Position numbers and translations under genes: made by a program
Part shown: piece by piece, positions 1 to 47,188 of the stretch
How the letters are laid out: the number at the start of each line of letters is the position of its first letter
How positions within the stretch are numbered: position 1 is the first letter of the stretch
Notes under the pieces: generated by a model
Told to the model about the DNA's origin: nothing
Seen by the model: the letters and a program-made list of their open reading frames with translations, nothing else
Databases searched by the model: none
Source of the DNA: an uncultured Candidatus Saccharibacteria bacterium
GTDB taxonomy: Bacteria > Patescibacteriota > Minisyncoccia > Phycocordibacterales > UBA9973
Length of the DNA: 64,000 bases
Direction of reading: 5' to 3'
Assembly: GCA_964645245.1 (NCBI GenBank)
Contig: CAZYBS010000002.1
Span: forward strand, 18,161 to 82,160

Positions 1-1171
1 AAGATTATACGAAATCATCGATTCCCGCACTTCTTACGAGTGCCAGTATGGGCTTTTCTTGAAAGACTGTTCAAGTTGTCTTTATTGTTTTGACTGCCGA
101 GGCTGTAATAATTGCTTCATGTCTTCGAACCTTCGCAATAAAAGCTATGTTTTTCGCAACAAACAGCTTTCTCGCGAAGAACATATGAAAAAGAAGAAAG
201 AATTGGAACTTTCTTCCTTTACCAATAGAGAAGGCCTGCGCAGGGAATGGTTAGACATGATGACAAATTCGATTCACCGATATGTCAGAAGCGCAAGAAA
301 TATAAATTCCACAGGCAGTTTTATTTATGATTGTAAAAATGTAACTCGATCTTTCGAAGTAGATAAAGGAGAAGACTCGAAACATCTGTATGCTACCATT
401 GACCCTAAAAACTGCATGGACCTCTACCATGTGGGTCTAAATCTTGAACTTTGTTATGAATGTCAGGGGTGCACGCGAACTTCCAACTGCCAATTTTGCC
501 ATCTGTGTTATGACAACATGAATGTTTCTTATTCCGATACTTGCCAAAACAGTCAGAACTTATTTGGCTGTGTATCTGTGAAAAAGGGTGAATATATGAT
601 TTTTAATAAAAAATATTCAAAAGCTGAATATGAAAAATTAAAAGCAAAAATCATTGAACACATGAGAAAAATAGGGGAGTACGGCGAATTTTTCCCGCCC
701 CAAAATGCGCCGGTGTATTACAATGAAACACAGGGCGCTCTCTATGTGCCAATGGAGAAAGAAGAAGTTTTAGCTAAAGGTTGGCATTGGGAAGACAATA
801 TTCCTGGGACTTTTGGGAAAGAAACAATCTCTGGTGGAGCTATACCCGATAAAATAGAGGATGTGCCGGACTCTTTTTTGAGTGAAGTTTTTTCTTGCGC
901 CACTTGTTCAAAAAATTATAATATTACTCAGAATGAACTTCTTTTCTTGAGAAAAGAGAGTGTGCCATTTCCCAGAAAATGCCCAAATTGCCGCTACAAG
1001 CGCAGATTTGATCTGCGTCCACCGAGAAGGCTTTGGCACAGGCAATGCATGTGCGACAGAAAAGACCATGGTCACGCGGGGAAATGTGATAATGAATTTG
1101 AGACCTCATACGCTCCTGGGCGACCAGAAAAAGTTTACTGCGAGAGCTGTTACAACAAAGAAGTATACTAA
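1..1171 (+). CDS. Cysteine-rich multi-CxxC protein, paralog 1 of 5 (5'-truncated by the window edge)
   Basis: Frame 2 is open from nt 2 upstream of the listed Met, so the gene starts before the window. The C-terminal ~150 aa module is conserved with the other paralogs (GEYGEFFP...PFPRKCPNCRYKRR...HGHAGKC...FETSYAPGRPEKVYCESCYNKEVY), and it has internal CxxCxxCxxC ladders. Confidence 0.75.
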   Translation, partial: RLYEIIDSRTSYECQYGLFLKDCSSCLYCFDCRGCNNCFMSSNLRNKSYVFRNKQLSREEHMKKKKELELSSFTNREGLRREWLDMMTNSIHRYVRSARNINSTGSFIYDCKNVTRSFEVDKGEDSKHLYATIDPKNCMDLYHVGLNLELCYECQGCTRTSNCQFCHLCYDNMNVSYSDTCQNSQNLFGCVSVKKGEYMIFNKKYSKAEYEKLKAKIIEHMRKIGEYGEFFPPQNAPVYYNETQGALYVPMEKEEVLAKGWHWEDNIPGTFGKETISGGAIPDKIEDVPDSFLSEVFSCATCSKNYNITQNELLFLRKESVPFPRKCPNCRYKRRFDLRPPRRLWHRQCMCDRKDHGHAGKCDNEFETSYAPGRPEKVYCESCYNKEVY

Positions 1172-1214: not shown

Positions 1215-2894
1215 ATGAAAAGCGAAATAAAAATGTGCCAAAACTGCAAACAAGATTTCATTATAGAAGAGGAAGACTTCAATTTCTATGAGAAGATAAA
1301 AGTACCACCGCCGACTTTTTGCCTGGAGTGCCGGCAAGTAAGAAGAATGGTTTGCGCCAACGAGCGGGTATTCTATAAAAGAAAATCTGATCTTGGCGGA
1401 GCCGATATTTTCAGCATGTATCCTCCAGATACGCCTTTTCCGGTGTACGAAACTAAGGAATTTTACTCCGACGAATGGGATCCATATCAATATGGGGCTG
1501 ATTATGATTTCTCTCGACCGTTTTTTGAGCAGTTTAAAGAGTTGTTTGACAAAGTCCCGCGCATGGCGCTGGTTCGGCAGGGTTTTTCCATTAATAGCGA
1601 ATACACCCATCGAGTGCATGACCTAAAAAATTGTTATATGGTTTTCCGCGCTTCTGATTGTGAAGATTCGCTTTATACTTATACGGCCCTAGACGCTAAA
1701 AACTGCGTAGACTGCTTTAATGTAAATCACTCCGAGCTTTGTTATGAATGCATAGACTGCAATAAGTGCTATAAAACCAGATTTTCCCAAGAATCCGCCG
1801 AGTGCCGGGATTCCCTGTTTTTATACGCTTGCCGCAACTGCTCCAATTGCGTTGGCTGTGTGAATCTAGTAAATCAAGAATATTGTATTTGGAACGCCAA
1901 ATATTCAAAAGAAGAATATTTTAAGAAGCTCATTGACCTGAAGCTTAATACCGCTTCCGGTATTTCCAAAATGGAACGCAAATTTTCTGAACTCAAGAAA
2001 AAGTTTCCTCAAAGGGCGATTATGTCCCTTAAATCCAATAAAGTTTCAGGTAATTGGTTTTTGAATTGCGAAAATGTAAAAAATTCTTTCGGCTGCGTGA
2101 ATTTGAAAGACTGCAAATATATTTATTTCGCGTTCAATGAACAGGATTGCATGGATCATTTTCAGTGGGGCGATTCTTCCGAGCTCATATATGAGTCCGC
2201 CAATTGCGGCATAAACGACTCCAGGATTTTTTTCTGTTCGCAATGCTGGTCCAGCGCTCATGACCTGTATTACTGCGATTCATGTCCGAGCTCGAGCTAC
2301 TCGTTCGGGTGCATCGGCTTGAAGAAAGGCGAATATTCAATACTTAATAAAAAATACACTAAAGGAGAATATGAGAAGTTAGTGCCGAAAATTATTGAGC
2401 ATATGAAACAGACAGGGGAGTACGGCGAGTTCTTTCCGCATACATTAAGCCCTTTTGCCTACAACGAAACAGCCGCAATTGATTTCTATCCACTTGCCAA
2501 AGAAGAAGCCATACGGAGAGGCTACAAATGGAAAGACCGGGAAAAGAGGAATTATAATATAACCAAAGAGGGAAAAGAACTTCCGGAAACCATAAGGGAG
2601 GTCGACGATTCAATACTTAAAGAAGTTATCGGCTGCGCCGAGAAAGACAAAGTTTATTCTACCGGAGCTTACCGTATTACGGAAAATGAACTCTCTTTTT
2701 ATCGGAGAATGGATTTACCTCTCCCCAGAGTATGTTTTGATGTGCGGCATACTAGACGTTTAGGGAAACGCCCGCCGATGCGTACAATAAAACGCTTCTG
2801 TTCAAAATGTAATATAGAAGTTGAAACAGCTTATGATGAAAATTACGCTCCCATAATTTACTGCGAAAAATGTTATCAGCAGGAGGTGTATTAA
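1215..2894 (+). CDS. Cysteine-rich multi-CxxC protein, paralog 2 (N-terminal Zn-ribbon-like module, CxxC ladder, C-terminal FCS/YacG-like Zn ribbon)
   Basis: 559 aa. N-terminus CQNCKQDFIIEEEDFNFYEKIKVPPPTFCLECRQVRRM is near-identical in paralogs 3-5, and the C-terminus ends ...YCEKCYQQEVY. There are about 45 Cys residues. Confidence 0.8.
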   Translation: MKSEIKMCQNCKQDFIIEEEDFNFYEKIKVPPPTFCLECRQVRRMVCANERVFYKRKSDLGGADIFSMYPPDTPFPVYETKEFYSDEWDPYQYGADYDFSRPFFEQFKELFDKVPRMALVRQGFSINSEYTHRVHDLKNCYMVFRASDCEDSLYTYTALDAKNCVDCFNVNHSELCYECIDCNKCYKTRFSQESAECRDSLFLYACRNCSNCVGCVNLVNQEYCIWNAKYSKEEYFKKLIDLKLNTASGISKMERKFSELKKKFPQRAIMSLKSNKVSGNWFLNCENVKNSFGCVNLKDCKYIYFAFNEQDCMDHFQWGDSSELIYESANCGINDSRIFFCSQCWSSAHDLYYCDSCPSSSYSFGCIGLKKGEYSILNKKYTKGEYEKLVPKIIEHMKQTGEYGEFFPHTLSPFAYNETAAIDFYPLAKEEAIRRGYKWKDREKRNYNITKEGKELPETIREVDDSILKEVIGCAEKDKVYSTGAYRITENELSFYRRMDLPLPRVCFDVRHTRRLGKRPPMRTIKRFCSKCNIEVETAYDENYAPIIYCEKCYQQEVY

Positions 2895-3499: not shown

Positions 3500-4018
3500 T
3501 TATTTCCCAAACGCTTCGAACAGAATTTTTTTTGTCTCCTCGTCTATAAATTGGGTGACAATGATCATCATTTCGGTTGTGAGTCCCAAGTCCTTTTTTA
3601 TATTCGTAAATAAGTGCTCAAAGGGGTAGGGGGAAATCCAGGCGGAATTTTTCAGGCAGACAAAGCCCGCTTTTTTAAGAAGGTAGCGCAGGCCCTCCCG
3701 CTCGCCTTTTCTGTTTTCCGGCAAATCCAAAAGAATAATTCTCCAGAATCCATCCCATGTTTGAGGGACCAGGGCGTCTTCGCTCTCTAGTGTCATGGTG
3801 TTCAGCTTGGTTTTTCCGTGAGCTGTGATTTTGGCGTAATTTTGCCTTTCTGTTGCATGCATTTCAGCATATCCGCCTTCCACCAGGTTTTTAAGAGCAC
3901 GGGCCAAAGCGTAGGAGGTTTTTGCGTCTTTGTCTTTTAGTTCCTCCACAGAAACTGCCGGCTTCTCAGCCAGCTTTTTAAGTATTTTTTTACTGTATTT
4001 TTCTTTTGGACTTGACAT
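3500..4018 (-). CDS. PaaX-like regulator with a Cas2-fold C-terminal domain (putative transcription factor)
   Basis: It has the WDGFWRIILLDLPE....R..LR..L...GF..L..SAWISP pattern (WDG...SVW-type PaaX_C/Cas2-like signature). It is divergent from dnaK. Confidence 0.45.
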   Translation of the reverse strand: MSSPKEKYSKKILKKLAEKPAVSVEELKDKDAKTSYALARALKNLVEGGYAEMHATERQNYAKITAHGKTKLNTMTLESEDALVPQTWDGFWRIILLDLPENRKGEREGLRYLLKKAGFVCLKNSAWISPYPFEHLFTNIKKDLGLTTEMMIIVTQFIDEETKKILFEAFGK

Positions 4019-4138: not shown

Positions 4139-6049
4139 ATGAGCAAAATTATAGGAATAGATTTGGGTACGACAAATTCGGCTGTTGCCGTGATTGAAGG
4201 GGGTGCACCAAAGATTGTTGAAAATGTGGAAGGCAATCGCACTACCCCTTCAGTAGTTTCGGTTGCTAAAAATGGAGACCGGCTGGTGGGCTTACTGGCC
4301 AAGAGGCAAGCGGTGACAAACCCGGAAAATACGGTTTATGGCATTAAGCGTTTTATGGGCCATAATTTTGATGATGCCGAAGTACAGAAAGATTTGAAAA
4401 ATGCGTCGTTCAAGGTTCAGAAATCCGCAAACGGCGGAGTAGAGGTGAAAATTGGTGATAAATGGATGCGCCCGGAAGAAGTTTCCGCGATGATTTTAGG
4501 AAAAATAAAAGGGGATGTAGAAGCAAAACTGGGAGAAAAGATTACCGAAGCAGTCATCACTGTGCCGGCCTATTTCAATGATGCGCAAAGAAAAGCCACC
4601 AAAGACGCCGGAGCGATTGCCGGACTAGACGTAAAACGCATCATTAACGAACCCACGGCAGCTGCTCTTGCTTACGGCTTTAATAAAAAGAAAAACGAAA
4701 AAATAGTGGTGTATGATTTTGGCGGGGGAACTTTTGATGTCTCTATTCTGGAGATTGGAGATGATGTAGTAGAAGTTAAATCCACGGACGGGGACAGCCA
4801 CTTAGGGGGCCGTGATATTGACCATAAAATCATAAACTTCATTGCGGAAGAATTTAAAAAAACTTCCGGTGTAGATGTACGCAAAGACAAGCTGGCCCTG
4901 CAGCGTCTGGACGAAGCGGCCGAGAAAGCCAAGATAGAGCTTTCAACTGCGGTTGAAACAGAAGTCAATATTCCGTTTATTACTTCTACCGCGGCCGGCC
5001 CTCAACATTTGCTTTTGAAAATGACTCGCGCTCAATTGGAATCCATTGCCGACGAGTATATTGCCCGTGCCGTAGAAATTACCAAGCGCGCGATGGCCGC
5101 TTCCGGTTTTAAAATTGAAGACATGAATGAAGTGATAATGGTCGGCGGACAGACCCGCATGCCGAAAATTGTGGAAGAAGTGAAAAAGATTTTTAATAAG
5201 ACTCCAAACTTATCCATCAACCCTGACGAAGTCGTGGCGCTCGGCGCGGCGGTGCAGGCTGGCGTATTGCAGGGGGATGTGCGCGACGTTCTCTTGCTTG
5301 ATGTCATACCGCTTTCACTTGGTATTGAAACATTGGGCGGAGTGGCTACTAAATTAATTGAAAGAAATACGACTATTCCATCCTCTAAGTCTCAAATATT
5401 CTCAACCGCGGCTGATAACCAGACTTCAGTGGAAATCCATATTGTGCAAGGGGAGCGTCCGATGGCATCTGACAATAAATCTCTTGGCAGGTTTATTCTA
5501 GACGGCGTGCCACCAGCGCCTCGCGGCATGCCGCAGATTGAGGTGGTCTTTGATGTGGATGCGAATGGAATTTTGAATGTGACGGCGAAAGATAAAGCTT
5601 CCGGTAAAACCCAGTCAATACGGATAGAAGCGAGCTCCGGATTAAAAGAAGAAGATATTAAGAAGATGCAAGCAGATGCAGAACTTCACGCCGAAGAAGA
5701 TAAAAAGAAAAAAGAAGTTGTAGATATAAAGAATACGGCGGAAATGATTATTTACACTGCCGAAAAAGCGCTCAAAGACAATGAAGCAAAAATCCCGGCA
5801 GAATTAAAAGACAGCGTCAATGCCAAAATATCTGCGCTCAAAACTGCCAAGGACGGCACTGACTCTGATGCAATTAAAAAAGCTACAGAAGAACTTTCTG
5901 CCGAAATGTCCAAAATAGGGGAAGCTATGGCTAAGGCCGGAGCAGACAACCCTTCGGCAAGCTCAGGACAGGCCCCCGAAGAACAAAACCCAGAAGTAAA
6001 AGATGCGGAGTTTAAGGAAAAGAAAAACGGGGAAGAGCCTAAATCCTAA
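4139..6049 (+). CDS. dnaK: Molecular chaperone DnaK (Hsp70)
   Basis: Motifs [27 protein letters not shown] and IVQGER are present across the full 636 aa. Confidence 0.97.
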
Positions 6050-6054
6050 TAAAT

Positions 6055-6996
6055 ATGAAAAATAATTTAATAAAGAAGAAAAAAGTTTTCATTTTCCTTT
6101 TTATTATTTTGAGTTTATTTTACGTGAATAGGTTTTCTTATGCGCAAACAACTTTTATTGAAGTTCGAAATCAAACTAAAGACAACACCCAGCGTATACA
6201 AGATATTGAAGACAAGATGCTAGATCTTAAGGATAACTATAGATTACTTTATGATGGGGCTAAAAATCAAAATGATCAACTAGGTAATCTGATTTCTTAT
6301 TCAGGGTATATTTTGGCTATTTTGGGTATTATTCTTGCTGCATATATAAATAGTCAGTATAAAAAAATTAAAGAGTTGAAAGACATTGTTGAAACTACTA
6401 AAGAGTACATTGATAAAGATAATAAAAAATTATATGAAAATATAACAAGAGACGAGACACTAAAATTACTTAAGAGATTGAAAGAAGTTCCAGAAGATAT
6501 TACAAATATTTATCACTTATTGTTTTCGCGAGATTTATTAGAAGAAGATTATATATCCCTTAAAGAACAATATTTAAAAATCAAAAATGACAACTCTCAA
6601 AGAGAGGCGAAAGATATTTATATTATGTTATTAATGCAACATTTCCCATATCAGTCCCTAAAAGATTCAGAATTAAAGACCGAAGTAATTTCTAAAATAG
6701 ACTTAGATAGCTTAAATAGTATGTTTAGTAGAGATATTAAAAATTTTTTTGTTGAAACATTAAAATATTTAAAAGAATTTGGTATTGGACATGAGCAAGA
6801 AAAGACAATTATAAAAAATTTATTCTATTTCTATTCAAAGTCCCATTTCCAAGCTAATGTTGAACTAAATAATTACATCAAAGAATCAGTTGTAAAATCT
6901 AGTCTAAATGTTTTAGATATTCACAGTGTGGCGAAAGAACAAGCTCCCACAGATTCAACATATACAAATTGGTTAAATTCTATTTTCTCTTCCTAA
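6055..6996 (+). CDS. Hypothetical membrane-anchored coiled-coil protein (extremely AT-rich gene)
   Basis: N-terminal hydrophobic segment, a second TM near aa 80-100, and Lys/Glu/Asn-rich low complexity. Its composition is clearly lower in GC than dnaK. Confidence 0.45.
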   Translation: MKNNLIKKKKVFIFLFIILSLFYVNRFSYAQTTFIEVRNQTKDNTQRIQDIEDKMLDLKDNYRLLYDGAKNQNDQLGNLISYSGYILAILGIILAAYINSQYKKIKELKDIVETTKEYIDKDNKKLYENITRDETLKLLKRLKEVPEDITNIYHLLFSRDLLEEDYISLKEQYLKIKNDNSQREAKDIYIMLLMQHFPYQSLKDSELKTEVISKIDLDSLNSMFSRDIKNFFVETLKYLKEFGIGHEQEKTIIKNLFYFYSKSHFQANVELNNYIKESVVKSSLNVLDIHSVAKEQAPTDSTYTNWLNSIFSS

Positions 6997-7035
6997 AGCT
7001 TTTAGTTTTGGCTATTTTTTGATATAATTTTATTC

Positions 7036-7482
7036 ATGGTTGAATACAAAAAAAGTTCTGCGGTATTAGTTTTTAATGATAAAGGTGAGCTTGCGTTACA
7101 GCTACGTGCTGCGAACGATAGCTCATTTCCTTCTCATTGGGATTTTTCGGCAGGTGGTGGAATTGATGAAGGAGAAGATAATAAATATTCTGCTGAAAGG
7201 GAACTAAAAGAAGAACTCGGTATTGATGCAGAAGTAGAATTTATAATTGAAGAGCATTATACATATCCAGCTTGGAATCCATCCGTGAAAAGGGAAGTAG
7301 ATCTTTTCATTTACAAAACTTTTCACAATGGACCATTTAATCCAGATCTCAAAGAAATTGAGAAAGTGGAGTTTTTTGCACTTGATACAATTAAAAAAAT
7401 GATTAAATCCAGTCAGAAATTTCATCCGGAATTTGTTCTATCATGGAATAAAGGAATTATTTCTCAAGCCCTTATAAATTAA
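7036..7482 (+). CDS. NUDIX hydrolase
   Basis: Perfect Nudix box GGGIDEGEDNKYSAERELKEELGI (GX5EX7REUXEEXGU). Confidence 0.85.
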   Translation: MVEYKKSSAVLVFNDKGELALQLRAANDSSFPSHWDFSAGGGIDEGEDNKYSAERELKEELGIDAEVEFIIEEHYTYPAWNPSVKREVDLFIYKTFHNGPFNPDLKEIEKVEFFALDTIKKMIKSSQKFHPEFVLSWNKGIISQALIN

Positions 7483-7596
7483 GGGCTTTTTGCTTGACTT
7501 TTAACATAAAATGTGCTATACTTGTACCGTTATCAGAATTGAGTTTCTGGTAGCCTCTACGGATGTTTCGTAGAGATTGTACATTGAAAGGTTCGT

Positions 7597-7743
7597 ATGA
7601 AAAAAAGGATTGCGTTTTTTGTCGTGATCGTGGCACCGAGCGTGGTAACCATGGTGCTCAGCGGAGTTCATCCTGGGTGGATCACGGCCAATGTGCTGTG
7701 GTTTGTCCTGTTGGCTGCCGTGCACAAACTCCGGCAAGACTAG
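7597..7743 (+). CDS. Possible small hydrophobic protein (48 aa), not in the ORF track
   Basis: ATG is preceded by gaaagg. The translation MKKRIAFFVVIVAPSVVTMVLSGVHPGWITANVLWFVLLAAVHKLRQD has two hydrophobic stretches. An imperfect hairpin follows at ~7836-7872. It lies in a locally GC-richer patch that overlaps two mutually overlapping listed ORFs. Confidence 0.25.
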   Translation: MKKRIAFFVVIVAPSVVTMVLSGVHPGWITANVLWFVLLAAVHKLRQD

Positions 7744-7964
7744 CTTGCAACACAAGAGCGCAAACTCTTGATAAAAAATCTTGCCGCCAGCGTTCGAGAG
7801 TTTACAGGCGTTAAAGTCAGAACTCTCAATATCATCATCTCTCACTCATTAGAACCTTCGGGTTTTCTAATAGTGAGCAGTACAATGAAGGTTTTTGTCT
7901 AAATCTTTATTCCTCTGCTCATAACTCCTTTAATTTTTGCGAATTTCTGCTATAATTTACCCAT

Positions 7965-9941
7965 ATGGACTTGCCGGAAATACCCATAAATAAAGAAATC
8001 ACCTATCTCGGAATTACTACTTACAGGGACAAAAACCAGCTTTTTGGCATCAAGCGCAAAGACAGGCGCCAGCATGTTTATCTGTTGGGAAAGTCCGGTA
8101 CCGGTAAATCAGTGCTGATGTTCAACATGATTATCCAGAATATCCAAAATGGCGACGGGGTCTGCATGGTTGACCCGCATGGAGAAAATGTTGAAGCAAT
8201 TCTCTCCGCCATCCCGCCGCACCGCATGAAGGATGTGGTTTATTTCAATCCGGCCGATGCTGATTATCATATCGGCTTTAATGTATTGGAGCTGATTGAC
8301 CCGCAATACAAGCACTTGGTGGCTTCGGGACTGATGGGCATTTTTACTAAAATTTGGGCCAATGCCTGGAGCGCCCGAATGGAATATATTTTAAATAATG
8401 CAATTCTGGCTTTGCTGGATACGCCGGGCACGACGCTCCTGGGGATTCCTCGAATGCTGGTGGACAAAGATTATCGCCAGAAAATAATTTCCAATTTAAA
8501 GGACCCGGTCATCAAGGCTTTCTGGGTGCACGAATATGAAGCTTGGCAAGATAAATTCCGTAATGAAGCGATCGCCCCGATTCAGAATAAAGTCGGGCAG
8601 TTTCTTTCCACTTCCATCATCCGCAATGTCGTCGGTCAGTCCAAGAGCACGATTAATATCTTTGACATGATGAATGAGAGGAAAATTTTTCTGGTGAATG
8701 TTTCCAAGGGGCGCATCGGAGAGGACAACTCCGGCCTTTTGGGCGGCATGATTATTACCAAAATCCAGCTGGCCGCCATGGAACGCGTGCGTATTCCGGA
8801 AGAGTCCCGCACCGACTTTTATCTTTATGTGGATGAATTTCAGAATTTCGTGACCGATGCTTTTGCCGGCATTTTATCGGAGGCCAGAAAATACAGATTG
8901 AACCTGACGGTGGCTCACCAATATACCGCTCAACTTATTTCCGACAAAAGTTCCGCTGTACGCGATGCCGTCTTCGGTAATGTCGGTACAATGATTGTCT
9001 TTCGAACAGGCGCCGATGACGCGGAATTTCTGGAAAAAGAATTTGATCCGGAATTTACTCCGCAGGATATAGTGAACTTGCCCAACTATAAAGCTTATTT
9101 GAAATTAATGATCGATGGCGTAACATCCCGTCCTTTTTCCGCCAAAACTTTGCCACCGCTGGTAAAATCCGGCAATAAAGAGATTGAAGAAGAGGTAATA
9201 AAATCTTCTCGTATATTGTATTGTCGGCCGAGAGAGGTTGTGGAAAGGGAAATCAATGACTGGAGCGGAATGTCGCTGGGTGATGAAAATGCCCCAGGCG
9301 GTAGTATAGAAAAATTTCCAGCTGTCTGTTCAAGTTGCAAGAAAGAGACTACAGTTCCCTTCAAGCCGGAAAAAGGGCGTCCAGTTTACTGTAAAGAATG
9401 CATAGCCAGGATAAAGTCTGGTGAGATAAAAGTAGAAAAAGGGTCAGAAAATCAAATTAAACATGATGAAACTAAATTTTTCAAGCCGTTGGCTGATTTG
9501 GGTATAGAGTTTGAACAAAAAGATAGGGGTAGAATTAAAGAAGCAGAAAGATATCCCGAGAGAATTGATAAACATGGAATCATAGGGGCCGTGAAAAAAG
9601 TTTTTACCAAAAGTGAGATGCCAGTCCCAACCAAAGTCGAGATTCCTAAAAAACCCAAGGAAAATTTAGCATTAAGGGAAGTTTTAAATAAAATAAGTGA
9701 ACCAGTTTCGCTTGATACTTTAAAAAATAAGACCAAAGAAACTATATCCTCTAAGGATCGTGCCGCTAGCCCGGAAGATATGAGTAAGTTAAAAGACCTA
9801 ATTTTAGAAAAAGTTCCCGAAGCTAAAGAGGAGGAAAAGGAGGAGAAAGCCCCGACGCCCGCAGGGGTCGGGGTCCCGACTTCTAAGAGCGTCGGGACAA
9901 AAGAAGTGCCGGAAGACGTTTTGAGAAAAGTTTTGGAATAA
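7965..9941 (+). CDS. Soluble VirD4/TraG/TraD-superfamily P-loop ATPase (AAA_10 / T4CP-like) with a C-terminal Zn ribbon and Lys/Glu-rich tail, paralog A
   Basis: Walker A LLGKSGTGKS, DPHGE, Walker B FYLYVDEFQNF, and ARKYRLNLTVAHQYTAQL (TraG-D_C-like). There are no N-terminal TM helices. Residues ~455-478 read CSSCKKETTVPFKPEKGRPVYCKEC. Confidence 0.7.
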   Translation: MDLPEIPINKEITYLGITTYRDKNQLFGIKRKDRRQHVYLLGKSGTGKSVLMFNMIIQNIQNGDGVCMVDPHGENVEAILSAIPPHRMKDVVYFNPADADYHIGFNVLELIDPQYKHLVASGLMGIFTKIWANAWSARMEYILNNAILALLDTPGTTLLGIPRMLVDKDYRQKIISNLKDPVIKAFWVHEYEAWQDKFRNEAIAPIQNKVGQFLSTSIIRNVVGQSKSTINIFDMMNERKIFLVNVSKGRIGEDNSGLLGGMIITKIQLAAMERVRIPEESRTDFYLYVDEFQNFVTDAFAGILSEARKYRLNLTVAHQYTAQLISDKSSAVRDAVFGNVGTMIVFRTGADDAEFLEKEFDPEFTPQDIVNLPNYKAYLKLMIDGVTSRPFSAKTLPPLVKSGNKEIEEEVIKSSRILYCRPREVVEREINDWSGMSLGDENAPGGSIEKFPAVCSSCKKETTVPFKPEKGRPVYCKECIARIKSGEIKVEKGSENQIKHDETKFFKPLADLGIEFEQKDRGRIKEAERYPERIDKHGIIGAVKKVFTKSEMPVPTKVEIPKKPKENLALREVLNKISEPVSLDTLKNKTKETISSKDRAASPEDMSKLKDLILEKVPEAKEEEKEEKAPTPAGVGVPTSKSVGTKEVPEDVLRKVLE

Positions 9942-10010
9942 AATGCAAAGTGAAATTAGAAATTGCCCCGCCTTCGCTAAAGCTACGGACGGGCAGGCAA
10001 AATTGCAAAT

Positions 10011-11777
10011 ATGGTGAAAGATAAAGAAAAGAAAATATGCCAGAACTGCCGTGGTGAATTTACTATAGAGCCCGAGGATTTTAATTTTTATGAAAAGATA
10101 AAGGTACCGTCACCGACTTTTTGCCCGCTTTGCCGAGCGCAGAGGCGAATGGCTTTTAGAAATGAGCGGAAACTTTTTAAAGTTAAAAATCATTTTACTG
10201 GTCAAGATATTTTCTCTACATATCCGGAAGAAAGCGGAAGAAAAATTATTACCCGGGAAGAGTGGTTTGGGGACAGTTGGGATGCGATGAAGCATGGAAG
10301 TGACTATGATTTTTCAAAGCCTTTTTTAAAACAACTAAAAGAACTTGATAAAGAGGTGCTAGTTTTTAATTATAATGTTCTTAGGATGGTTAATAGTCCA
10401 TATGCATTTAACGCCTCAGGTTTAAAAAATTGTTACCTTATTGTCAACTCTAGTTATTCAGAAGATTGCATGTATGGTAATGCAATAGATTTTTGCAAAG
10501 ACTCAATAGATAACTCACATATAACTCACTCTGAGCGATGCCATGAATCTTTTTGGTTGGAAAATTGTTATCAATGTTATTTTACAATAATGTCAGCAGA
10601 TTCTCGCAATCTGTATTTTTGTAGAGATTGTGTTGGCTGTAACGATTGTTTCGGTTGTGCAAATTTACGCAAGAAATCTTATTGCATCTTTAATAAGCAA
10701 TATTCTAAACTAGATTATCAGGAAGAGCTTAAAAAAATGAATCTTCAAACTATTTCAGGCTTATCAAAGGCACACAAAAAGGCAAGAGAATTCTGGAATA
10801 CCCAACCAATTAAATGTCATCAAGGATTAAAAAATTTAAATTCAACAGGCTCCTACGTAACAAATTGTAAAAATGTGAATGATAGCTATTTAATCAGAGA
10901 AAGTGAAAATATGCGTTATTGCCAATATCAACAAATACCGGGGAACAAAGATTGTTATGATGTAACTAATTGGGGAGAGTACACAGAACTCAGTTATGAA
11001 ACAGTAGAATGTGGTGATAATTCTTATTGCGATAAGTTTTCTAAAAATTGTTGGCCTGCCTGCAGGAATAATGAATATTGCATAAACCTTTTCAGCTCAT
11101 CCGATTGTTTTGGTTGCGTAGGGCTAAAGAAAAAACAATATTGCATTTTGAATAAACAATACACTAAGGAAGAATATGAAAAAATGGTGGAAAAAATTAA
11201 GCAGCATATGGATAAAATGCCTTATGTTGACTTACAAGGCCTCGTTTATAAATACGGGGAATTTTTTCCAATAGAATTTTCTCCTTTTGGATATAATAAT
11301 ACACTTGCTATGCAACATTTCCCGTTAAGTAAAGAAGAGGTAATGAAAAAAAATTATGGATGGGTGGAAGTACCTCGCGGTGAGTATAAAATAACTAAAA
11401 AAGCGGAAGATTTACCAGATTCAATTGAAAATGTTGCAAATGAAATCCTAAAAGAAGTTTTTGAATGCGATAGTTGTAAAAATCCTTATAGAATATTAGA
11501 AAATGAATTTATATTTTATAAAAAAGAAAAACTGCCGTTACCCCGCTTGTGTAGTGAATGTAGGCACGAGCGGCGCATTAAGGACAGACTTAAATTGTTT
11601 TTATACGAAAGGACTTGCATGTGCGCAGGTATTATAGACCAGACCAATACGTATAAAAATACTATTTCCCATATTCATAAAGATTTTCCTTGTGGAGAAA
11701 GATTTAAAACCGGATATGCTCCCGGCCGACTGGAGATAGTTTACTGCGAAAAGTGTTACCAGCAAGAAGTTTATTAA
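10011..11777 (+). CDS. Cysteine-rich multi-CxxC protein, paralog 3
   Basis: 588 aa with the conserved N-terminus CQNCRGEFTIEPEDFNFYEKIKVPSPTFCPLCRAQRRM and C-terminus ...YCEKCYQQEVY. Confidence 0.8.
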   Translation: MVKDKEKKICQNCRGEFTIEPEDFNFYEKIKVPSPTFCPLCRAQRRMAFRNERKLFKVKNHFTGQDIFSTYPEESGRKIITREEWFGDSWDAMKHGSDYDFSKPFLKQLKELDKEVLVFNYNVLRMVNSPYAFNASGLKNCYLIVNSSYSEDCMYGNAIDFCKDSIDNSHITHSERCHESFWLENCYQCYFTIMSADSRNLYFCRDCVGCNDCFGCANLRKKSYCIFNKQYSKLDYQEELKKMNLQTISGLSKAHKKAREFWNTQPIKCHQGLKNLNSTGSYVTNCKNVNDSYLIRESENMRYCQYQQIPGNKDCYDVTNWGEYTELSYETVECGDNSYCDKFSKNCWPACRNNEYCINLFSSSDCFGCVGLKKKQYCILNKQYTKEEYEKMVEKIKQHMDKMPYVDLQGLVYKYGEFFPIEFSPFGYNNTLAMQHFPLSKEEVMKKNYGWVEVPRGEYKITKKAEDLPDSIENVANEILKEVFECDSCKNPYRILENEFIFYKKEKLPLPRLCSECRHERRIKDRLKLFLYERTCMCAGIIDQTNTYKNTISHIHKDFPCGERFKTGYAPGRLEIVYCEKCYQQEVY

Positions 11778-11819
11778 GTGATATCAATATCATCATACTA
11801 GTGTGCTAGTATAAAAATT

Positions 11820-13544
11820 ATGAACAGTGAAAATAAAAATTGTCAGAATTGTAAAAAAGACTTCATCATCGAGCCGGAGGATTTTAATTTTTATGAGAAA
11901 ATAAAAGTTCCGCCACCGACTTTCTGTCCGGAGTGCCGGCTTCAAAGGCGCATGGCTTGGCGCAACGAGCGCACCCTTCATAGAAATAAGTGCGCCAAAA
12001 CAGGCAAAAGTTTGATTAGCTGCTTTTCTGCCGATTCGCCATTTACCGTTTACGATAGGGATATTTGGTGGGGAGACAAGTGGGATCCTACAGCATATGG
12101 AGTGGAATATGATTTCTCAAAGTCTTTCTTTAGCCAGTTCCGCAAACTTTTAGAAAAAGTTCCTCATCCAAATCTTTTTATAGGAAAATGCGTTAATACT
12201 TTCTATGGAAATTATATTGGTGAATTTAGAAATTCATACCTTGTATCAGCATCTTGGGTCGGAGATAACATAGCTTACGCATCACGTTGCAATAACTGCA
12301 AAGATTCTGTGGATATGTTTACCGTCAATAACTGTGAATTTTCTTATGAAGATGTTTCTTCTTCTAAGTGTTACGAAACTTTTTTCTCGCACAACGCTGA
12401 TTCCTGTACCAGTTCTTATTTTCTTTATGATTGTAAAAATTGCATAAATTGTTTTGGTTGCACATCACTTCGTAATAAATCTAACTGTATGTGGAACAAG
12501 CAACTTACCAAAGAAGAGTATGATAAAAAGTTTAAGGACTTAGATATTGGAAGTTTCGAAAATTTTAAAAAAATACAACAAGAATTCGAGGGACTTAAAT
12601 TAAAAGCTATTAGAAGATTTGCTAATATTATAAATTCTACTAATGTTTCTGGGGATGATATATTTCATTCTACTAATTCTCACTATTGTTTTGCTATATC
12701 AGATGATGTGAAGGATTGTAAGTTCATAATTAATTCTCTTGATCGTCTGTATAATAGTTATGATGGATACGGAACTGGTGCCAATACGGAATTGGTTTAT
12801 GAGGGAATGGACTCTGGCGTGAACGGATCCAGACAGTTATTCGTGCTTACAGTCTGGGAGTGCATGAATACAGAATATTCAATTAATTGTCATGGGTGCA
12901 ATAATATTTTTGGTTGCGCAGGCCTCCGTAAGAAAGATTATTGCATTTTTAACAAACAATATTCAAAAGAGGAATATGAAAAAATCAGGGCTCAGATAAT
13001 TGGACAGATGAATAAAATGCCATACGTTGACAAAAAAGGTCGTTCGTATAAATACGGGGAGTATTTCCCAGTGGAAATTTCTCCATTTGGATATAATGAA
13101 ACTGTATCGCAAGACTACTTCCCGCTTTCTAGAGAAGAAATTTTGAAGAACGGCTATAACTGGGTTGAACGAGAGAAACCAGAATATAAAACCACTTGTA
13201 CATCTAAAGATTTACCAGATCACATTAAAGATACTGATGAAAGTATTTTAAGTTTAGTCATTGAATGCGAATCCTGTAAAAGACCTTATAAAATTATTGA
13301 AAACGAGTATCTTTTTTTGAAAAGATTTAGTCTGCCGATACCACGGAAATGTTTTGAATGTCGCCACCAAGAACGATTTAAAAAGGTTAATCCGCCTAAA
13401 ATTTATCATAGGCAATGCATGTGCGAAAAAGGAAATCATTCTCATGGAGCAGGGAAGTGTACGGTAGAATTTGAAACATCCTACGCTCCCGACAGGCCTG
13501 AGATTATTTACTGCGAAAAATGTTACCAGCAGGAAGTGTATTAA
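11820..13544 (+). CDS. Cysteine-rich multi-CxxC protein, paralog 4
   Basis: 574 aa with the same N- and C-terminal modules (CQNCKKDFIIEPEDFNFYEKIKVPPPTFCPECRLQRRM ... FETSYAPDRPEIIYCEKCYQQEVY). Confidence 0.8.
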   Translation: MNSENKNCQNCKKDFIIEPEDFNFYEKIKVPPPTFCPECRLQRRMAWRNERTLHRNKCAKTGKSLISCFSADSPFTVYDRDIWWGDKWDPTAYGVEYDFSKSFFSQFRKLLEKVPHPNLFIGKCVNTFYGNYIGEFRNSYLVSASWVGDNIAYASRCNNCKDSVDMFTVNNCEFSYEDVSSSKCYETFFSHNADSCTSSYFLYDCKNCINCFGCTSLRNKSNCMWNKQLTKEEYDKKFKDLDIGSFENFKKIQQEFEGLKLKAIRRFANIINSTNVSGDDIFHSTNSHYCFAISDDVKDCKFIINSLDRLYNSYDGYGTGANTELVYEGMDSGVNGSRQLFVLTVWECMNTEYSINCHGCNNIFGCAGLRKKDYCIFNKQYSKEEYEKIRAQIIGQMNKMPYVDKKGRSYKYGEYFPVEISPFGYNETVSQDYFPLSREEILKNGYNWVEREKPEYKTTCTSKDLPDHIKDTDESILSLVIECESCKRPYKIIENEYLFLKRFSLPIPRKCFECRHQERFKKVNPPKIYHRQCMCEKGNHSHGAGKCTVEFETSYAPDRPEIIYCEKCYQQEVY

Positions 13545-13589
13545 ACACAACATTTTGCAAAATGACAAAATGTTGATAAGATAAATAAC

Positions 13590-13862
13590 ATGAGTTTACC
13601 ATATAAAAAAATCGAAAAAATAGTAAAAGGATTTGCAAATCATAGGCGACTTCAAATATTGGAGCTTCTAAGTAGAGTCCCTAATTTATCAGTTGATGAC
13701 ATATCTCAAAATTTAGATGTTGGATTTTTTACTATTTCAGATCATATACGCAAAGCGACTGATGCGGGATTAATTGAAAAGAAATATAAAGGTCGTTTTG
13801 TGCTTCACAGTCTTACAAAGAGAGGGAGGCATATTTTGTTATTTTGCAAAATGTTTAAATGA
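13590..13862 (+). CDS. ArsR/SmtB-family winged-helix transcriptional regulator
   Basis: 90 aa with HRRLQILELLSRVPNLSVDDISQNLDVGFFTISDHIRKATDAGLI (HTH plus wing). Confidence 0.6.
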   Translation: MSLPYKKIEKIVKGFANHRRLQILELLSRVPNLSVDDISQNLDVGFFTISDHIRKATDAGLIEKKYKGRFVLHSLTKRGRHILLFCKMFK

Positions 13863-13871
13863 GAAATTAAT

Positions 13872-14849
13872 GTGAAAAGTGAAACGAAAACTCTAAAAAA
13901 TAAAAAAGAATTTTTCATTTTCCCGACCTTACCATTTCATTTTGACGGCACATTTCACAAACCATCACATTTTCCAGATAAACTTAGTGATTGGCAAACT
14001 GGTAAGCATTGGCAAACCATTCGTCTTGGTAAAAGACTTTTCGGATTAAAAATTGAAAATAAAGGAGAGAAGCAAAAACCAAAAATAAAAGTTTCAGTTT
14101 TTTATAATAACACGATTTCTGGCAAGGAATTAGAAGATATTAAGCAGGAAATCATCTGGCGTTTTGATTTAAACGCTGATTTAAAAGAATTTAATAAACT
14201 AGCCAGAAATGACAAGCGTTTTTATCCGATTTTCAAAAAATGGCTAGGGATGCGAAACTCAAGTGCACATAATTTATATGAACTTCTGATCATTGCAGTG
14301 CTTTTGCAAAATGCAACAGTTAGACGAACAGTCCAAATGATAGGCACGCTTCTTGATAGTTATGGTACTAGGTTGAAATTTGATAAAAAAGAAATTTTTG
14401 CCATTTGGCTTCCGGAAAGATTGAAAAATGTTTCAGAGCAGGATTTAAGGAATTTAAAAATAGGTTATCGGGCAAAATTTATCAAGCGTTTATCAAAAGA
14501 TTTTGCCGAAAGTCAAGTTGATGAGCAGAAACTCAGATTACTTAATCAAGAAAGTGCAAAGAAAGAATTACTAAAACTTTTTGGAGTTGGACCGGAAACT
14601 GCCCGTATATTGCTTTTTGAAGTTTGTCACCAATACAATACTTTTGACCATATAGCACCATGGCAACAAAAAATATATTCTCGATTGTTTTATAAAAAGC
14701 CGCTAGTCTCTGTTAATAAAATTAGAGATGATATTAAAAAACAGTATGGCGAATACTCTATGCTGGCGGTTCACTATATCTGGGAAGATATTTTTTGGAG
14801 AAGAAAAAATGAAAGAATTGACTGGCTGGAAAGAGAAATCAGGCTTTAA
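13872..14849 (+). CDS. HhH-GPD superfamily DNA glycosylase (AlkA-like)
   Basis: Helix-hairpin-helix motif LLKLFGVGPETARILLFEV followed by an Asp (NTFDHIAPW), and an N-terminal AlkA-like region. Confidence 0.5.
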   Translation: MKSETKTLKNKKEFFIFPTLPFHFDGTFHKPSHFPDKLSDWQTGKHWQTIRLGKRLFGLKIENKGEKQKPKIKVSVFYNNTISGKELEDIKQEIIWRFDLNADLKEFNKLARNDKRFYPIFKKWLGMRNSSAHNLYELLIIAVLLQNATVRRTVQMIGTLLDSYGTRLKFDKKEIFAIWLPERLKNVSEQDLRNLKIGYRAKFIKRLSKDFAESQVDEQKLRLLNQESAKKELLKLFGVGPETARILLFEVCHQYNTFDHIAPWQQKIYSRLFYKKPLVSVNKIRDDIKKQYGEYSMLAVHYIWEDIFWRRKNERIDWLEREIRL

Positions 14850-14904
14850 TTATAAGCTAAATAACTGTTGGAAAATAATCTAAAATCGTGCTAAAATAGC
14901 CCAT

Positions 14905-16407
14905 ATGCCAAAACCGGGTCGAGTGCAAATAATCAAATATGGTCCGCCGCCGCCGGAATTGCCGGTTTTTGGAAAGATAGACCCGACCGAGGTGTCTTTC
15001 ATCGGACGTACAAATTACGTTGCCGCATTAGAGGAGAAAAAGTTTATATTCGGCATCAAGCGCATAGACCGCCGCCGGCATCTTTATATTGTCGGCAAGT
15101 CCGGCGTTGGTAAAACCAAACTTCTGGAACTTCTTATCCGTCAAGATATAACCTATGGCCATGGATTATGCCTGATTGACCCGCACGGCGATGTGATGGA
15201 GGCAATACTGGACTATATACCCAAGGAACGCATAGAAGATGTTTGCATTATCAACCCGCCCGACGTTGATTTTCCGGCCTCTTTCAACCCATTGGCGAAT
15301 GTTGATCCGATGTTTAAGTTTCAATTGACTCAAGGGTTGATTGAAGTTTTCCAAAAACAATTCGGAGCCAACTGGACGCCCAGGCTGGAGCACGTTTTCC
15401 GCTTTACCTGTTTGGCCTTGCTGGATTATCCGCACGCGACGATGCGCGGCATGATTTCCATGCTGACCGACCGAAATTACCGGCAGAAGGTGGTGGAGTA
15501 TATTACCGACGATATGGTAAAAAGATTCTTCGCTATTGAATTCGCCGACTGGTCGGAGAAGTTTGACACCGATGCCATTATCCCGCTAGTTAACAAGCTC
15601 GGGCAATTCCTCTCCGACCCGCTCTTGCGCAATATCTTCGGCCAAAAGCAGAACAAGATAGACATCAGTAAGCTGATGAACGAGCAAAAGATTATTCTAA
15701 TTAATATCTCCAAAGGCCGTCTGGGAGAAGAAAATTCCTCTTTTCTTGGTTCTATCTTTCTGACTAAAATAAAACAAGCGGGTATGGAGCGCGCGGCTAT
15801 ACCAGAAAAAGACCGTACGGACTTTTATCTATACGTGGATGAGTTTCACAATGTCGTTACTCAGACCTTTGAAAACATTTTATCCGAGGCCAGAAAATAT
15901 GCTTTAAGTTTAACTATGGCCCATCAATATGTTGGTCAGGTTATTCCCCGAGTTCACCAAGCGGTACTTGGTAATTGCGGTAGTGTGATTACTTTTCGTA
16001 TTAGTGGTGAAGACGCAGTTAAAATGAAACCGGAATTTGCGCCTTTGTTTGACGTGAAGGATATGATCAATCTGGCTGTCGCGGAATTTTATATAAAAAT
16101 GACCATTGACGGTGAGTCCTATGACCCATTTTCGGCTGAAACACTTCGAGTTCTTCCCCCGACTCATCCCTCATACAGAGAAGAAATTATGGCGGCCTCT
16201 CGCCGGAAATATTCAATACCAAAAGACGACGCGGCCAAGCTTATTGCCGAGGAAGAGGCGACAATCATCCGAAGCGCCGAAGAGAAGGCAATTATCGAGA
16301 GCAAAGCTAAAAGAAAAGCAAAAGAAAAAGGAGAAGATAATGGCGAAGAAGATGAAAAAGAAAAACCTAAAGCAAAAGCTTCACAAGAAGCCGAACCCAT
16401 GATATAA
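14905..16407 (+). CDS. Soluble VirD4/TraG/TraD-superfamily P-loop ATPase, paralog B
   Basis: Walker A IVGKSGVGKT, DPHGD, Walker B FYLYVDEFHNV, and ARKYALSLTMAHQYVGQV. It is colinear with paralog A over the first ~400 aa and has a Lys/Glu-rich C-terminal tail. Confidence 0.7.
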   Translation: MPKPGRVQIIKYGPPPPELPVFGKIDPTEVSFIGRTNYVAALEEKKFIFGIKRIDRRRHLYIVGKSGVGKTKLLELLIRQDITYGHGLCLIDPHGDVMEAILDYIPKERIEDVCIINPPDVDFPASFNPLANVDPMFKFQLTQGLIEVFQKQFGANWTPRLEHVFRFTCLALLDYPHATMRGMISMLTDRNYRQKVVEYITDDMVKRFFAIEFADWSEKFDTDAIIPLVNKLGQFLSDPLLRNIFGQKQNKIDISKLMNEQKIILINISKGRLGEENSSFLGSIFLTKIKQAGMERAAIPEKDRTDFYLYVDEFHNVVTQTFENILSEARKYALSLTMAHQYVGQVIPRVHQAVLGNCGSVITFRISGEDAVKMKPEFAPLFDVKDMINLAVAEFYIKMTIDGESYDPFSAETLRVLPPTHPSYREEIMAASRRKYSIPKDDAAKLIAEEEATIIRSAEEKAIIESKAKRKAKEKGEDNGEEDEKEKPKAKASQEAEPMI

Positions 16408-16414
16408 TACTTGT

Positions 16415-18130: not shown

Positions 18131-18135
18131 TAAGC

Positions 18136-18163: not shown

Positions 18164-18200
18164 ACTAGAGTAATACGTTCTTTAAAATCTTTACGAAATT

Positions 18201-45463: not shown

Positions 45464-47188
45464 ATGAGTAATATTAGCGAAAAGAGAATATGTACAAATT
45501 GTCGTGGCGAATTTATTATTGAGCCGGATGATTTTGGATTTTATCAGAAAATCAAAGTCCCTCCGCCGACTTTTTGCCCGGAATGCCGATTTCAGCGGCG
45601 ACTAATGTTTAGAAACGAGCGAAGTTTTTACAAAAGGAAATGCGATTTATGCGAAAAGGATATTATCGCATCATATCCTTCCAACACAGCTTTTCCAGTT
45701 TATTGCGTGAAGTGCTGGTGGAGCGATAAGTGGGACCCAACGGGTTATGGTAAGGATTTTAATTTCTCGCGTCCATTTTTTGGACAGTTTAAGGAACTTT
45801 TGCTTCGTGTCCCAGTGCTTTCAATAATGAATGATGATGGCGTGGGAAGCGTAAACTCCGAGTGGTCATATGATTGGGCATTTAGCAAGAATTGTTATCT
45901 TGGAGCGTGCGGCTGGCATGTGCAGAATGGCGCCTATATGTATAATGCGAATTATGATAAGGACGTGGTGGATATCTGGAGTGTAACTAATTCCGAACTT
46001 GTCTATGAGGGTGTTACTTGTGATAACTGCTACAACATAAAATACTGCACTTTGTGTTTTAACTCAAATCACTGTACGCTTGGTTTTGATCTCCGGGGAT
46101 GTTCGGATTGTACAATGTGCGTTGGGCTTCGAAGCGTAAAATATTGCATTCTCAATCAACAGTATTCAAAAGAAGAGTATGAACAAAAAGTGAAAGAATT
46201 GCATCTTGAAAGCCGAAAATCACTTGAGGCGCATATGAAAGAATTTCAAGAGTTAGTTCTTAAGATTCCACGGAAATTCGCATACAATAGTAAAACAATT
46301 AATTCAACAGGCAACAATCTTATTGAGGTGAAAATGTCCAAGGATTGTTTTTTTATCATCGGTCCGACGGAAAATTCACGATTCGTTGTTGTGAATGATA
46401 GGGCTAAAGATTGTTATGACCTTAACAATACTGGCAATACAGAACTATGTTATGAATCAGTTACGCCAGATAACTCGCGCGGAAATAAAAGCACAATATT
46501 TTGCTGGAAATGTGTTGAGGCGGAATATTCAAATAATTGCCATTCCTGTATAAGTGTATTTGGTTCCAGCGGCCTCAAGCACACTTCATATGCAATTCTC
46601 AATAAGCGATATTCCAAAGAAGACTATGTTTCACTTCGCGCGCGTATAATTGAGCACATGAAAACGACGGGTGAATGGGGCGAGTTTTTCCCTCATACAA
46701 TAAGCCCCTTTGCCTACAACGAAACAGCGGCGCTTGAGTGGTTTCCATTGACCAAAGAGAAAGCAATAGCCAAGGGATATTGTTGGAAAGATAACGAAAA
46801 AAGAAACTACATCCCAACCAAAACTATTTCTAATCTTCCAGACACTATTCAAGGGGTTGATGATAATTTTTTAAATGAGATTTTTGAGTGTGCACATAAA
46901 GGTAAATGTGATGAAAGGTGTACTGAAGCATTTCGAATTATTCCCCGGGAACTTCAATTTTACCGTAGAATGAATATTCCTCTTCCTGTGTTGTGCCCTA
47001 ACTGCCGGCATTATCAAAGATTTAAGATTAAAAATCCACCACGACTCTGGCACAGGCAATGTATGTGCGACAAAGAAAATCATTTTCACGGGGCCGGGAA
47101 GTGTCAAGTAGAATTTGAAACAAGCTATGCACCAGACCGGCCGGAGATTGTGTATTGCGAGAAATGCTACCAGCAAGAAGTGTACTGA
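45464..47188 (+). CDS. Cysteine-rich multi-CxxC protein, paralog 5 (singleton)
   Basis: 574 aa with CTNCRGEFIIEPDDFGFYQKIKVPPPTFCPECRFQRRL ... FETSYAPDRPEIVYCEKCYQQEVY. Confidence 0.8.
   Translation: MSNISEKRICTNCRGEFIIEPDDFGFYQKIKVPPPTFCPECRFQRRLMFRNERSFYKRKCDLCEKDIIASYPSNTAFPVYCVKCWWSDKWDPTGYGKDFNFSRPFFGQFKELLLRVPVLSIMNDDGVGSVNSEWSYDWAFSKNCYLGACGWHVQNGAYMYNANYDKDVVDIWSVTNSELVYEGVTCDNCYNIKYCTLCFNSNHCTLGFDLRGCSDCTMCVGLRSVKYCILNQQYSKEEYEQKVKELHLESRKSLEAHMKEFQELVLKIPRKFAYNSKTINSTGNNLIEVKMSKDCFFIIGPTENSRFVVVNDRAKDCYDLNNTGNTELCYESVTPDNSRGNKSTIFCWKCVEAEYSNNCHSCISVFGSSGLKHTSYAILNKRYSKEDYVSLRARIIEHMKTTGEWGEFFPHTISPFAYNETAALEWFPLTKEKAIAKGYCWKDNEKRNYIPTKTISNLPDTIQGVDDNFLNEIFECAHKGKCDERCTEAFRIIPRELQFYRRMNIPLPVLCPNCRHYQRFKIKNPPRLWHRQCMCDKENHFHGAGKCQVEFETSYAPDRPEIVYCEKCYQQEVY

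Follow-up and report, generated by a model that had tools for sequence, protein, structure and literature searches.

A predicted zinc ribbon of the zf_Tbcl_2 family on a TrwB/HerA-class ATPase and its family-level likeness to the termini of neighbouring Cys-rich proteins in Candidate Phyla Radiation bacteria

Results

The locus

We analysed a stretch of 64,000 nucleotides (the window) from an uncultured Candidatus Saccharibacteria bacterium (contig CAZYBS010000002.1, positions 18,161 to 82,160 of the forward strand), in which a gene that we call ATPase A lies between dnaK and dnaJ, together with a second ATPase gene, ATPase B, and genes for cysteine-rich (Cys-rich) proteins. An earlier note on this DNA had pointed to a small zinc ribbon on ATPase A that resembles the ends of the Cys-rich proteins, and had suggested that a module shared in this way could be a common interaction or recognition handle. 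Our analysis places the ribbon in a known domain family and the resemblance at the level of that family. The features of the two ATPases are as follows.

7965..9941, + strand: ATPase A gene, an open reading frame (ORF) of 658 amino acids (aa), with Pfam NTPase matches and TrwB 1e9r as its relative in the PDB
8088..8111, + strand: Walker A motif of ATPase A, GKSGTGKS, aa 42-49, read from the translation
9327..9401, + strand: ribbon of ATPase A, CSSCKKETTVPFKPEKGRPVYCKEC, aa 455-479, with PF23477 and TIGR04272 matches
9402..9938, + strand: K/E-rich tail of ATPase A, aa 480-658, from its composition, its conservation in the alignment and its low predicted local distance difference test score (pLDDT)
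14905..16407, + strand: ATPase B, a ribbon-less paralog of ATPase A, 500 aa, with matches to the same Pfam NTPase families and only 4 Cys

ATPase A, a soluble motor with a long C-terminal extension

ATPase A is widespread in bacteria of the Candidate Phyla Radiation (CPR). It belongs among the soluble P-loop NTPases of the TrwB/VirD4/HerA-FtsK class, and its C-terminal extension is long. Residues 32-357 score above the Pfam cut-offs for TrwB_AAD_bind (38.5 bits, cut-off 20.5), DUF87/HerA, T4SS-DNA_transf and TraG-D_C, and the sole PDB relative by sequence is TrwB 1e9r (E 3.7e-5). This NTPase domain of the FtsK/HerA/TrwB class has both Walker motifs, a Walker B-like FYLYVDE being read from the translation at aa 285-291. 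The protein has no transmembrane (TM) segment, as its maximal 19-residue hydropathy is 1.13 and Walker A already begins at residue 42.

A P-loop NTPase core followed by a long C-terminal extension recalls TrwB, TraD and VirD4. However, ATPase A lacks the N-terminal membrane anchor of these proteins, and its best equivalog among the type IV coupling proteins, TIGR03743, reaches 44.5 bits against a cut-off of 366, with the others lower. The genetic setting also appears to differ: ATPase A sits in a dnaK...dnaJ housekeeping cluster and, judged by the ~30 window ORFs that were scanned, not in a conjugation locus. None of these ORFs is a type IV secretion system (T4SS) channel, relaxase or VirB gene, and the neighbours among them are housekeeping genes, for example DnaK, DnaJ, NUDIX, ScpAB and MurG.

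Within the extension, the homologue alignment reveals conserved islands, namely FFKPLADLGIEF (aa 505-516), KDRAASxEDMxKLKDLI (aa 597-613) and ALREVLNK, and the extreme C-terminus is likewise conserved (EVPEDVLRKxLE). Short conserved islands of this kind in a low-complexity tail look like linear interaction motifs. In the low-confidence AlphaFold2 (AF2) model of ATPase A the ribbon forms a hairpin and a helix, flanked by linkers with a pLDDT below 50. Two short minus-strand ORFs (9095..9364 and 9452..9736) are mechanical listings inside the ATPase A gene.

The ribbon of ATPase A belongs to a catalogued domain family

The CxxC-x17-CxxC ribbon that had been read on ATPase A is exact, its knuckles being CSSC-x17-CKEC. 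Residues 450-481 match Pfam PF23477 (zf_Tbcl_2, which Pfam labels a "probable treble clef zinc finger") with an E-value of 4e-14 and 52.5 bits (cut-off 27), and the ribbon matches the NCBIfam entry TIGR04272 (CxxC-x17-CxxC) with an E-value of 6.7e-15 and 54.5 bits (cut-off 36). The likeness extends over nearly the whole profile, with the same spacing and the VPFKPxxGRPVYCxxC signature. Judged by these matches, the ribbon is a canonical, already catalogued mini-domain that is predicted to bind zinc. It is also the only significant zf_Tbcl_2 copy in the window when all six-frame ORFs are scanned. The earlier note's wording of a C-terminal ribbon has to be corrected, because a further 179 residues lie between the ribbon and the end of the protein. 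By contrast, the statement that ATPase B lacks the ribbon holds, as this protein has no PF23477 match in the Pfam scan and only 4 Cys.

The ribbon is kept in 120/120 of the closest homologues of ATPase A and, with the same x17 spacing, in 64/67 orthologous loci from Nomurabacteria/Paceibacteria metagenome-assembled genomes; in the other three loci one orthologue is truncated and two are distant. Many close homologues are already named "CxxC-x17-CxxC domain-containing protein" in public records.

A search of 1.84 billion proteins with a profile of the ATPase ribbon retrieved 4,163 cluster representatives. The best 150 of these are fragments of the ATPase A-type protein or small proteins with 2-6 tandem copies; all 150 match PF23477, and among ten of the best that were looked up, those with names are archaeal. 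In the stand-alone repeats the copies are separated by K/R/G-rich linkers, with RGG-like motifs in 58/91. Unlike the top non-ATPase matches in the representative library, which are tandem repeats with RGG-like linkers, ATPase A has the domain only once and joined to an NTPase. Small Methanosarcina mazei proteins with a zf_Tbcl_2-type domain bind zinc, as measured by inductively coupled plasma mass spectrometry, and their function is unknown (PMC12704099). A search of the literature on the Pfam names, the CPR Cys-rich families and the dnaK-ATPase linkage found nothing.

The Cys-rich proteins carry ribbons at both ends

Five Cys-rich paralogs are encoded in the window.

2..1171, + strand: Cys-rich paralog 1, cut by the left window edge, the frame being open to the window start
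1076..1150, + strand: terminal ribbon register of paralog 1; PF23477 E 0.0015, decoy p 1/10000
1215..2894, + strand: Cys-rich paralog 2
2799..2873, + strand: terminal ribbon of paralog 2, an exact CxxC-x17-CxxC (CSKCNIEVETAYDENYAPIIYCEKC); PF23477 E 0.51, decoy p 0.017
10011..11777, + strand: Cys-rich paralog 3
11682..11756, + strand: terminal ribbon register of paralog 3, aa 558-582; PF23477 E 0.013, decoy p 34/10000
11820..13544, + strand: Cys-rich paralog 4
13416..13523, + strand: terminal ribbon of paralog 4, aa 533-568; PF23477 E 0.0078, decoy p 7/10000
45464..47188, + strand: Cys-rich paralog 5
45641..45715, + strand: second, N-proximal CxxC-x17-CxxC of paralog 5 (CDLCEKDIIASYPSNTAFPVYCVKC); PF23477 E 0.23
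47093..47167, + strand: terminal ribbon register of paralog 5; decoy p 2/10000

A distance of 28 kb separates paralog 5 from the ATPase cluster; its immediate upstream neighbours are scpA/scpB, and a VanY-like gene comes next.

These proteins belong to a family without a Pfam domain, for which more than 6,700 homologues were counted, and the full-length window paralogs match no Pfam or NCBIfam family. The proteins have neither a signal peptide nor a TM segment. For paralog 4 the AF2 model is good (pLDDT 87, predicted TM-score 0.88). Each end of a Cys-rich protein consists of a CxxC-x24-CxxC ribbon (ribbon A, zf_Tbcl-like) followed by a zf_Tbcl_2-like ribbon, so that the protein is internally symmetric, and a cysteine-ladder beta-solenoid lies between the ribbon pairs. 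The best match of ribbon A is PF13451 (zf_Tbcl, "probable treble clef domain"), with E-values of 3e-4 to 0.017, although all of these matches are below the cut-off (<=21.1 bits versus 24) and ATPase A has no such ribbon. Both domains occur together in 2/150 zf_Tbcl_2 proteins. The solenoid resembles the cysteine-ladder beta-solenoids of the Tenebrio antifreeze protein (1ezg) and the curli protein CsgA (8c50). Those proteins are secreted, whereas the CPR family lacks a signal peptide and has predicted zinc ribbons capping both ends. In the solenoid, runs with a Cys at every third residue are seen, for example at 12432-12461 (CKNCINCFGC) and at 10614-10658 (CRDCVGCNDCFGC); such runs may form disulfides, zinc sites or iron-sulfur sites.

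No part of the Cys-rich family is better conserved than the terminal ribbon. Its first ligand lies upstream, across an insertion in the first knuckle that varies between members (CxxC, CxxxxC, or CxC...HxH...C). In paralog 4, the family alignment gives C533, C547, C565 and C568 as the invariant ligands, with the first knuckle expanded to C-x13-C, and this knuckle is also expanded in the termini of paralogs 1, 3 and 5. An exact CxxC-x17-CxxC is found among the window paralogs only at the terminus of paralog 2 and in the N-proximal copy of paralog 5. This second, N-proximal ribbon is degenerate in most family members, where a consensus VYDRD replaces VYCxxC, and paralog 5 is the only one in the window with all four of its Cys. 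The terminal string FETSYAPDRPEIIYCEKCY, which had been ascribed to every Cys-rich paralog, is exact in paralog 4 only, with variants elsewhere.

In many family members the expanded first knuckle reads CxC...HxH...C (for example at 13416-13460), which could indicate a second metal site. A LIM domain (PF00412) gives sub-threshold matches in 18/45 Cys-rich termini. We set this reading aside: among four termini or proteins scanned singly the best score was 20.4 bits versus 22.9, and the match covers only the CxC...HxH variants.

The Cys-rich termini resemble zf_Tbcl_2 at the family level

Across 45 diverse termini of the family, scanned against 24,736 Pfam families, 42 match PF23477 first (best E 5.9e-7), and in NCBIfam 34 match TIGR04272 (best E 5.2e-6). 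Among other ribbons, the TFIIB ribbon is matched by 4 termini and most other ribbon families by 1. Scores of 26.3 and 29.5 bits over positions 3-35 of the 37 in the PF23477 profile come from two members whose CxxC-x17-CxxC is intact; the latter score, obtained with the terminus of P0109 taken alone, is above the Pfam cut-off. A weak precomputed PF23477 match is also present on a Cys-rich neighbour gene in a Staskawiczbacteria locus (L069). The isolated termini of the five window paralogs give E-values of 0.0015-0.51, PF23477 being the sole match for four of them and one of five sub-threshold matches for paralog 2.

Profile comparison agrees with these scans. In hhalign, the termini align without gaps to 29 columns of a diverse zf_Tbcl_2 profile, with a probability of 90.7% (P 1.3e-6), whereas the CxxC-x24-CxxC ribbon of the same Cys-rich proteins, used as a control, reaches 2.9% and the control ribbons overall 2.8-2.9%. 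Shuffled decoys with the Cys fixed reached the true score in 1, 171, 34, 7 and 2 of 10,000 cases for paralogs 1 to 5, respectively, and in the reverse direction the ATPase A ribbon beat 4,996/5,000 decoys against the Cys-rich profile. The resemblance proposed in the earlier note is therefore greater than that between arbitrary CxxC...CxxC ribbons, with paralog 2 as the weakest case. On this evidence the last ~35 residues of the Cys-rich proteins are diverged members of the zf_Tbcl_2 domain family, which would reflect the common descent of a small fold. They have the second knuckle, the aromatic residue at position 12, Pro at 14 and Val-Tyr at 20-21, but differ from the canonical domain in the expanded or remodelled first knuckle, in the loss of VPF and the basic residues, and in a net charge of -3.

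The resemblance is not specific to the ATPase

With a hidden Markov model (HMM) of the Cys-rich termini, the median score was 10.2 bits (maximum 23.4) for 222 copies of zf_Tbcl_2 in other proteins and 8.6-10.3 bits for the ATPase-type ribbons. Unrelated archaeal zf_Tbcl_2 repeats thus score on this HMM as well as the ATPase ribbons, or better. In the 25-residue register, the positions common to both ribbons are C4, the aromatic residue at 12, P14, V20, Y21, C22 and C25, of which the non-ligand positions are most likely fold-core; where the canonical domain has VPF and basic residues, the Cys-rich termini have others. The mean net charge is +2.2 for ATPase ribbons, +0.4 for generic zf_Tbcl_2 copies and -3.1 for Cys-rich termini. 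What the two ribbons have in common is the fold skeleton, that is, the metal ligands and the hydrophobic core, and no shared surface.

Because the likeness between the ATPase and its neighbours is no closer than that to unrelated zf_Tbcl_2 repeats, by itself it provides no evidence for a shared docking handle. Of the module proposed by the earlier note, the membership of one domain family and the linkage of the genes (described below) stand, while a likeness particular to the ATPase does not. We also rejected the idea that ATPase A and the adjacent Cys-rich genes have recently exchanged the domain, since the ATPase ribbon is far nearer to the generic consensus (P 1.6e-21) than to the termini (P 1e-4).

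The ATPases and the Cys-rich genes are linked across CPR lineages

Linkage was counted in 67 Nomurabacteria/Paceibacteria loci (L001-L067). Their backbone, which in the window occupies 4139-17521, is dnaK - ATPase A - 0 to 4 Cys-rich genes - ATPase B - dnaJ, with further Cys-rich copies upstream of dnaK and all cluster genes co-oriented. Two TrwB/HerA-class ATPases lie between dnaK and dnaJ in most loci. ATPase A occurs together with Cys-rich genes in 46/67 loci and is followed downstream by ATPase B in 44/67; between the two there are 0, 1, 2, 3 or 4 Cys-rich copies in 16, 12, 11, 4 and 1 loci, respectively. The gene directly after ATPase A is Cys-rich in 30/58 loci, and 119/119 Cys-rich copies are co-oriented with the ATPase. 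A rearranged order, ATPase B - Cys-rich - ATPase A, is found in two loci (L058 and L059).

A different setting, with secDF and a sigma factor instead of dnaK/dnaJ, is found in Staskawiczbacteria, Liptonbacteria and another lineage. There, too, Cys-rich arrays of up to 7 genes in a row adjoin ATPase A or a ribbon-less ATPase, as in L068, where they lie beside a ribbon-less one. A functional linkage of the ATPases and the Cys-rich proteins is thus well supported in the loci compared. These other lineages encode a TM protein, DUF8128, either separately (~465 aa) and ahead of the ATPase or as a fusion with it (787 aa), an arrangement that recreates a coupling-protein-like layout. The copies, separate or ATPase-fused, are as follows.

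6257-7678 of L068: DUF8128 TM protein
4363-5760 of L069: DUF8128 TM protein
6325-7719 of L072: DUF8128 TM protein
4458-6821 of L071: DUF8128 TM protein
L064: DUF8128 TM protein

No DUF8128 homologue was found in the window or in most Nomurabacteria loci.

Discussion

The C-terminal extensions of TraD (as in F TraD-TraM) and of DotL recruit partners, and the TrwB and FtsK class of motors handles DNA. By analogy with the conjugative coupling proteins, the zf_Tbcl_2 domain of ATPase A, a beta-hairpin and short helix in the model, would be held on flexible linkers in the C-terminal extension, where the ribbon, which is basic, could form a tethered recruitment platform together with the conserved motifs nearby. 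This platform may capture a polyanionic ligand or a partner protein and hand it over to the motor, and ATPase B would act in the same pathway without the ribbon module. We suggest that the ligand is most likely a nucleic acid because the ribbon is basic, the stand-alone repeats have RGG-like linkers and this class of motor handles DNA; a protein could take that place instead, given that the tails of TraD and DotL recruit partners. In the Cys-rich proteins, the terminal ribbon would pair with the zf_Tbcl-like ribbon to cap the end of the cysteine-ladder beta-solenoid, its surface having turned acidic. Most likely, then, the ATPase A ribbon is a tethered module that binds a ligand and is carried by the tail of a soluble motor of the TrwB/HerA class. 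The account as a whole, in which a known zf_Tbcl_2 ribbon with a family-level likeness to the neighbouring proteins serves as such a module, is the best explanation that we can offer and one that we hold to be probable.

Several points weigh against this account. The five window termini score 10.5-18.6 bits, below the PF23477 cut-off of 27, the full-length window paralogs give no zf_Tbcl_2 match, and paralog 2, the weakest, is marginal (decoy p 0.017). Compared directly with the ATPase ribbons alone, the termini reach an hhalign probability of 56-58% (P 1e-4). A search of PDB sequences with the ribbon profile returned spurious kinase matches (E >4) and no zf_Tbcl_2 structure, no ligand is known for any zf_Tbcl_2 domain, and the mean pLDDT of the ATPase A model is 54.5, a low confidence. 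Moreover, given that ATPase and Cys-rich genes are so consistently adjacent, their products may interact directly.

In the handle reading, ATPase A and the Cys-rich proteins would use the same module to bind one shared partner, or to be recognised by one machine. This reading fits with the frequent Cys-rich gene directly after ATPase A, the uniform co-orientation of the copies, the survival of the association in Staskawiczbacteria, Liptonbacteria and the third lineage, where all the genes around it are different, and the conservation of the terminal ribbon above the rest of the Cys-rich family. However, the likeness is limited to the ligands and the core, the net charges are opposite, and generic zf_Tbcl_2 repeats match equally well or better. 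ATPase B and the L068 ATPase flank Cys-rich arrays although they have no ribbon, and no Cys-rich gene separates ATPase A from ATPase B in 16 of the 44 loci. We do not favour the shared handle and consider it unlikely.

The opposite charges would instead fit the docking of a client or cargo, in which the Cys-rich proteins would signal through their acidic terminal ribbon and their invariant C-terminal tail, and the basic tail of ATPase A would recognise this signal in order to process or translocate them. In favour of this reading, the genes are robustly linked, coupling proteins recognise signals at C-termini, the core of the beta-solenoid is similar to surface and extracellular proteins, and the DUF8128 protein that precedes or is fused to the ATPase in other CPR lineages gives a layout like that of a coupling protein. 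Yet the window ORFs scanned include no T4SS channel gene, the window holds no DUF8128 homologue, four-cysteine zinc sites are typical of cytoplasmic proteins, and the Cys-rich proteins have neither a signal peptide nor a TM segment. We regard docking of this kind as slightly less probable even than the handle. It is tempting to speculate further that ATPase A and B and the Cys-rich arrays, with DUF8128 in some lineages, form a CPR-specific system whose motor recognises the Cys-rich proteins and delivers them for export, assembly or remodelling; we give this idea the same small chance as cargo docking. If it were true, the shared fold would be one half of a recognition pair, the basic ATPase tail facing the acidic terminus and its invariant tail.

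Finally, that any two CxxC...CxxC ribbons would be this alike, by chance or convergence and with no common origin, is disfavoured and the least probable alternative of all, since the short segments, the sub-threshold window paralogs, the marginal paralog 2 and the modest direct hhalign value are set against the 42/45 termini that pick PF23477 out of the whole of Pfam while other ribbons are seldom matched, the very low control probabilities, the 26-29.5 bits of members with intact knuckles over the full profile, and the rarity with which Cys-fixed shuffles reach the true scores.

The ribbon of ATPase A is in itself nothing new, as it has a name in public annotation. Placing the termini of the Cys-rich proteins in the zf_Tbcl_2 family is a small new annotation, through which a very large unannotated CPR family becomes partly readable, with pairs of zf_Tbcl-like and zf_Tbcl_2-like ribbons flanking a beta-solenoid. 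A more interesting by-product is the conserved, uncharacterised module of ATPase and Cys-rich genes across CPR lineages. This module is modestly useful in bacteria most of whose lineage-specific biology is unknown, and it provides a concrete pair of proteins for interaction tests.

Other observations

In PADLOC, the ATPases gave superfamily-level matches only (mad8, HerA) and the Cys-rich proteins none, and we therefore set aside a reading of the locus as a defence system. In a Staskawiczbacteria genome, the Cys-rich array that separates ATPase A from ATPase B contains toxin-like genes among its members.

13444-14436, 17540-18415 and 5768-6157 of L069/L070: Fic/RhuM-like and PemK toxin-like genes

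Two further genes of the window deserve mention. Between paralog 2 and dnaK, a small protein with a PaaX central Cas2-like domain (E 7.7e-19) is encoded at 3500-4018 on the minus strand. In addition, the minus strand at 57686-59113 encodes a 475-residue protein with an N-terminal hydrophobic leader and WETFT-type repeats near its C-terminus, located beside a PBP2-like gene.

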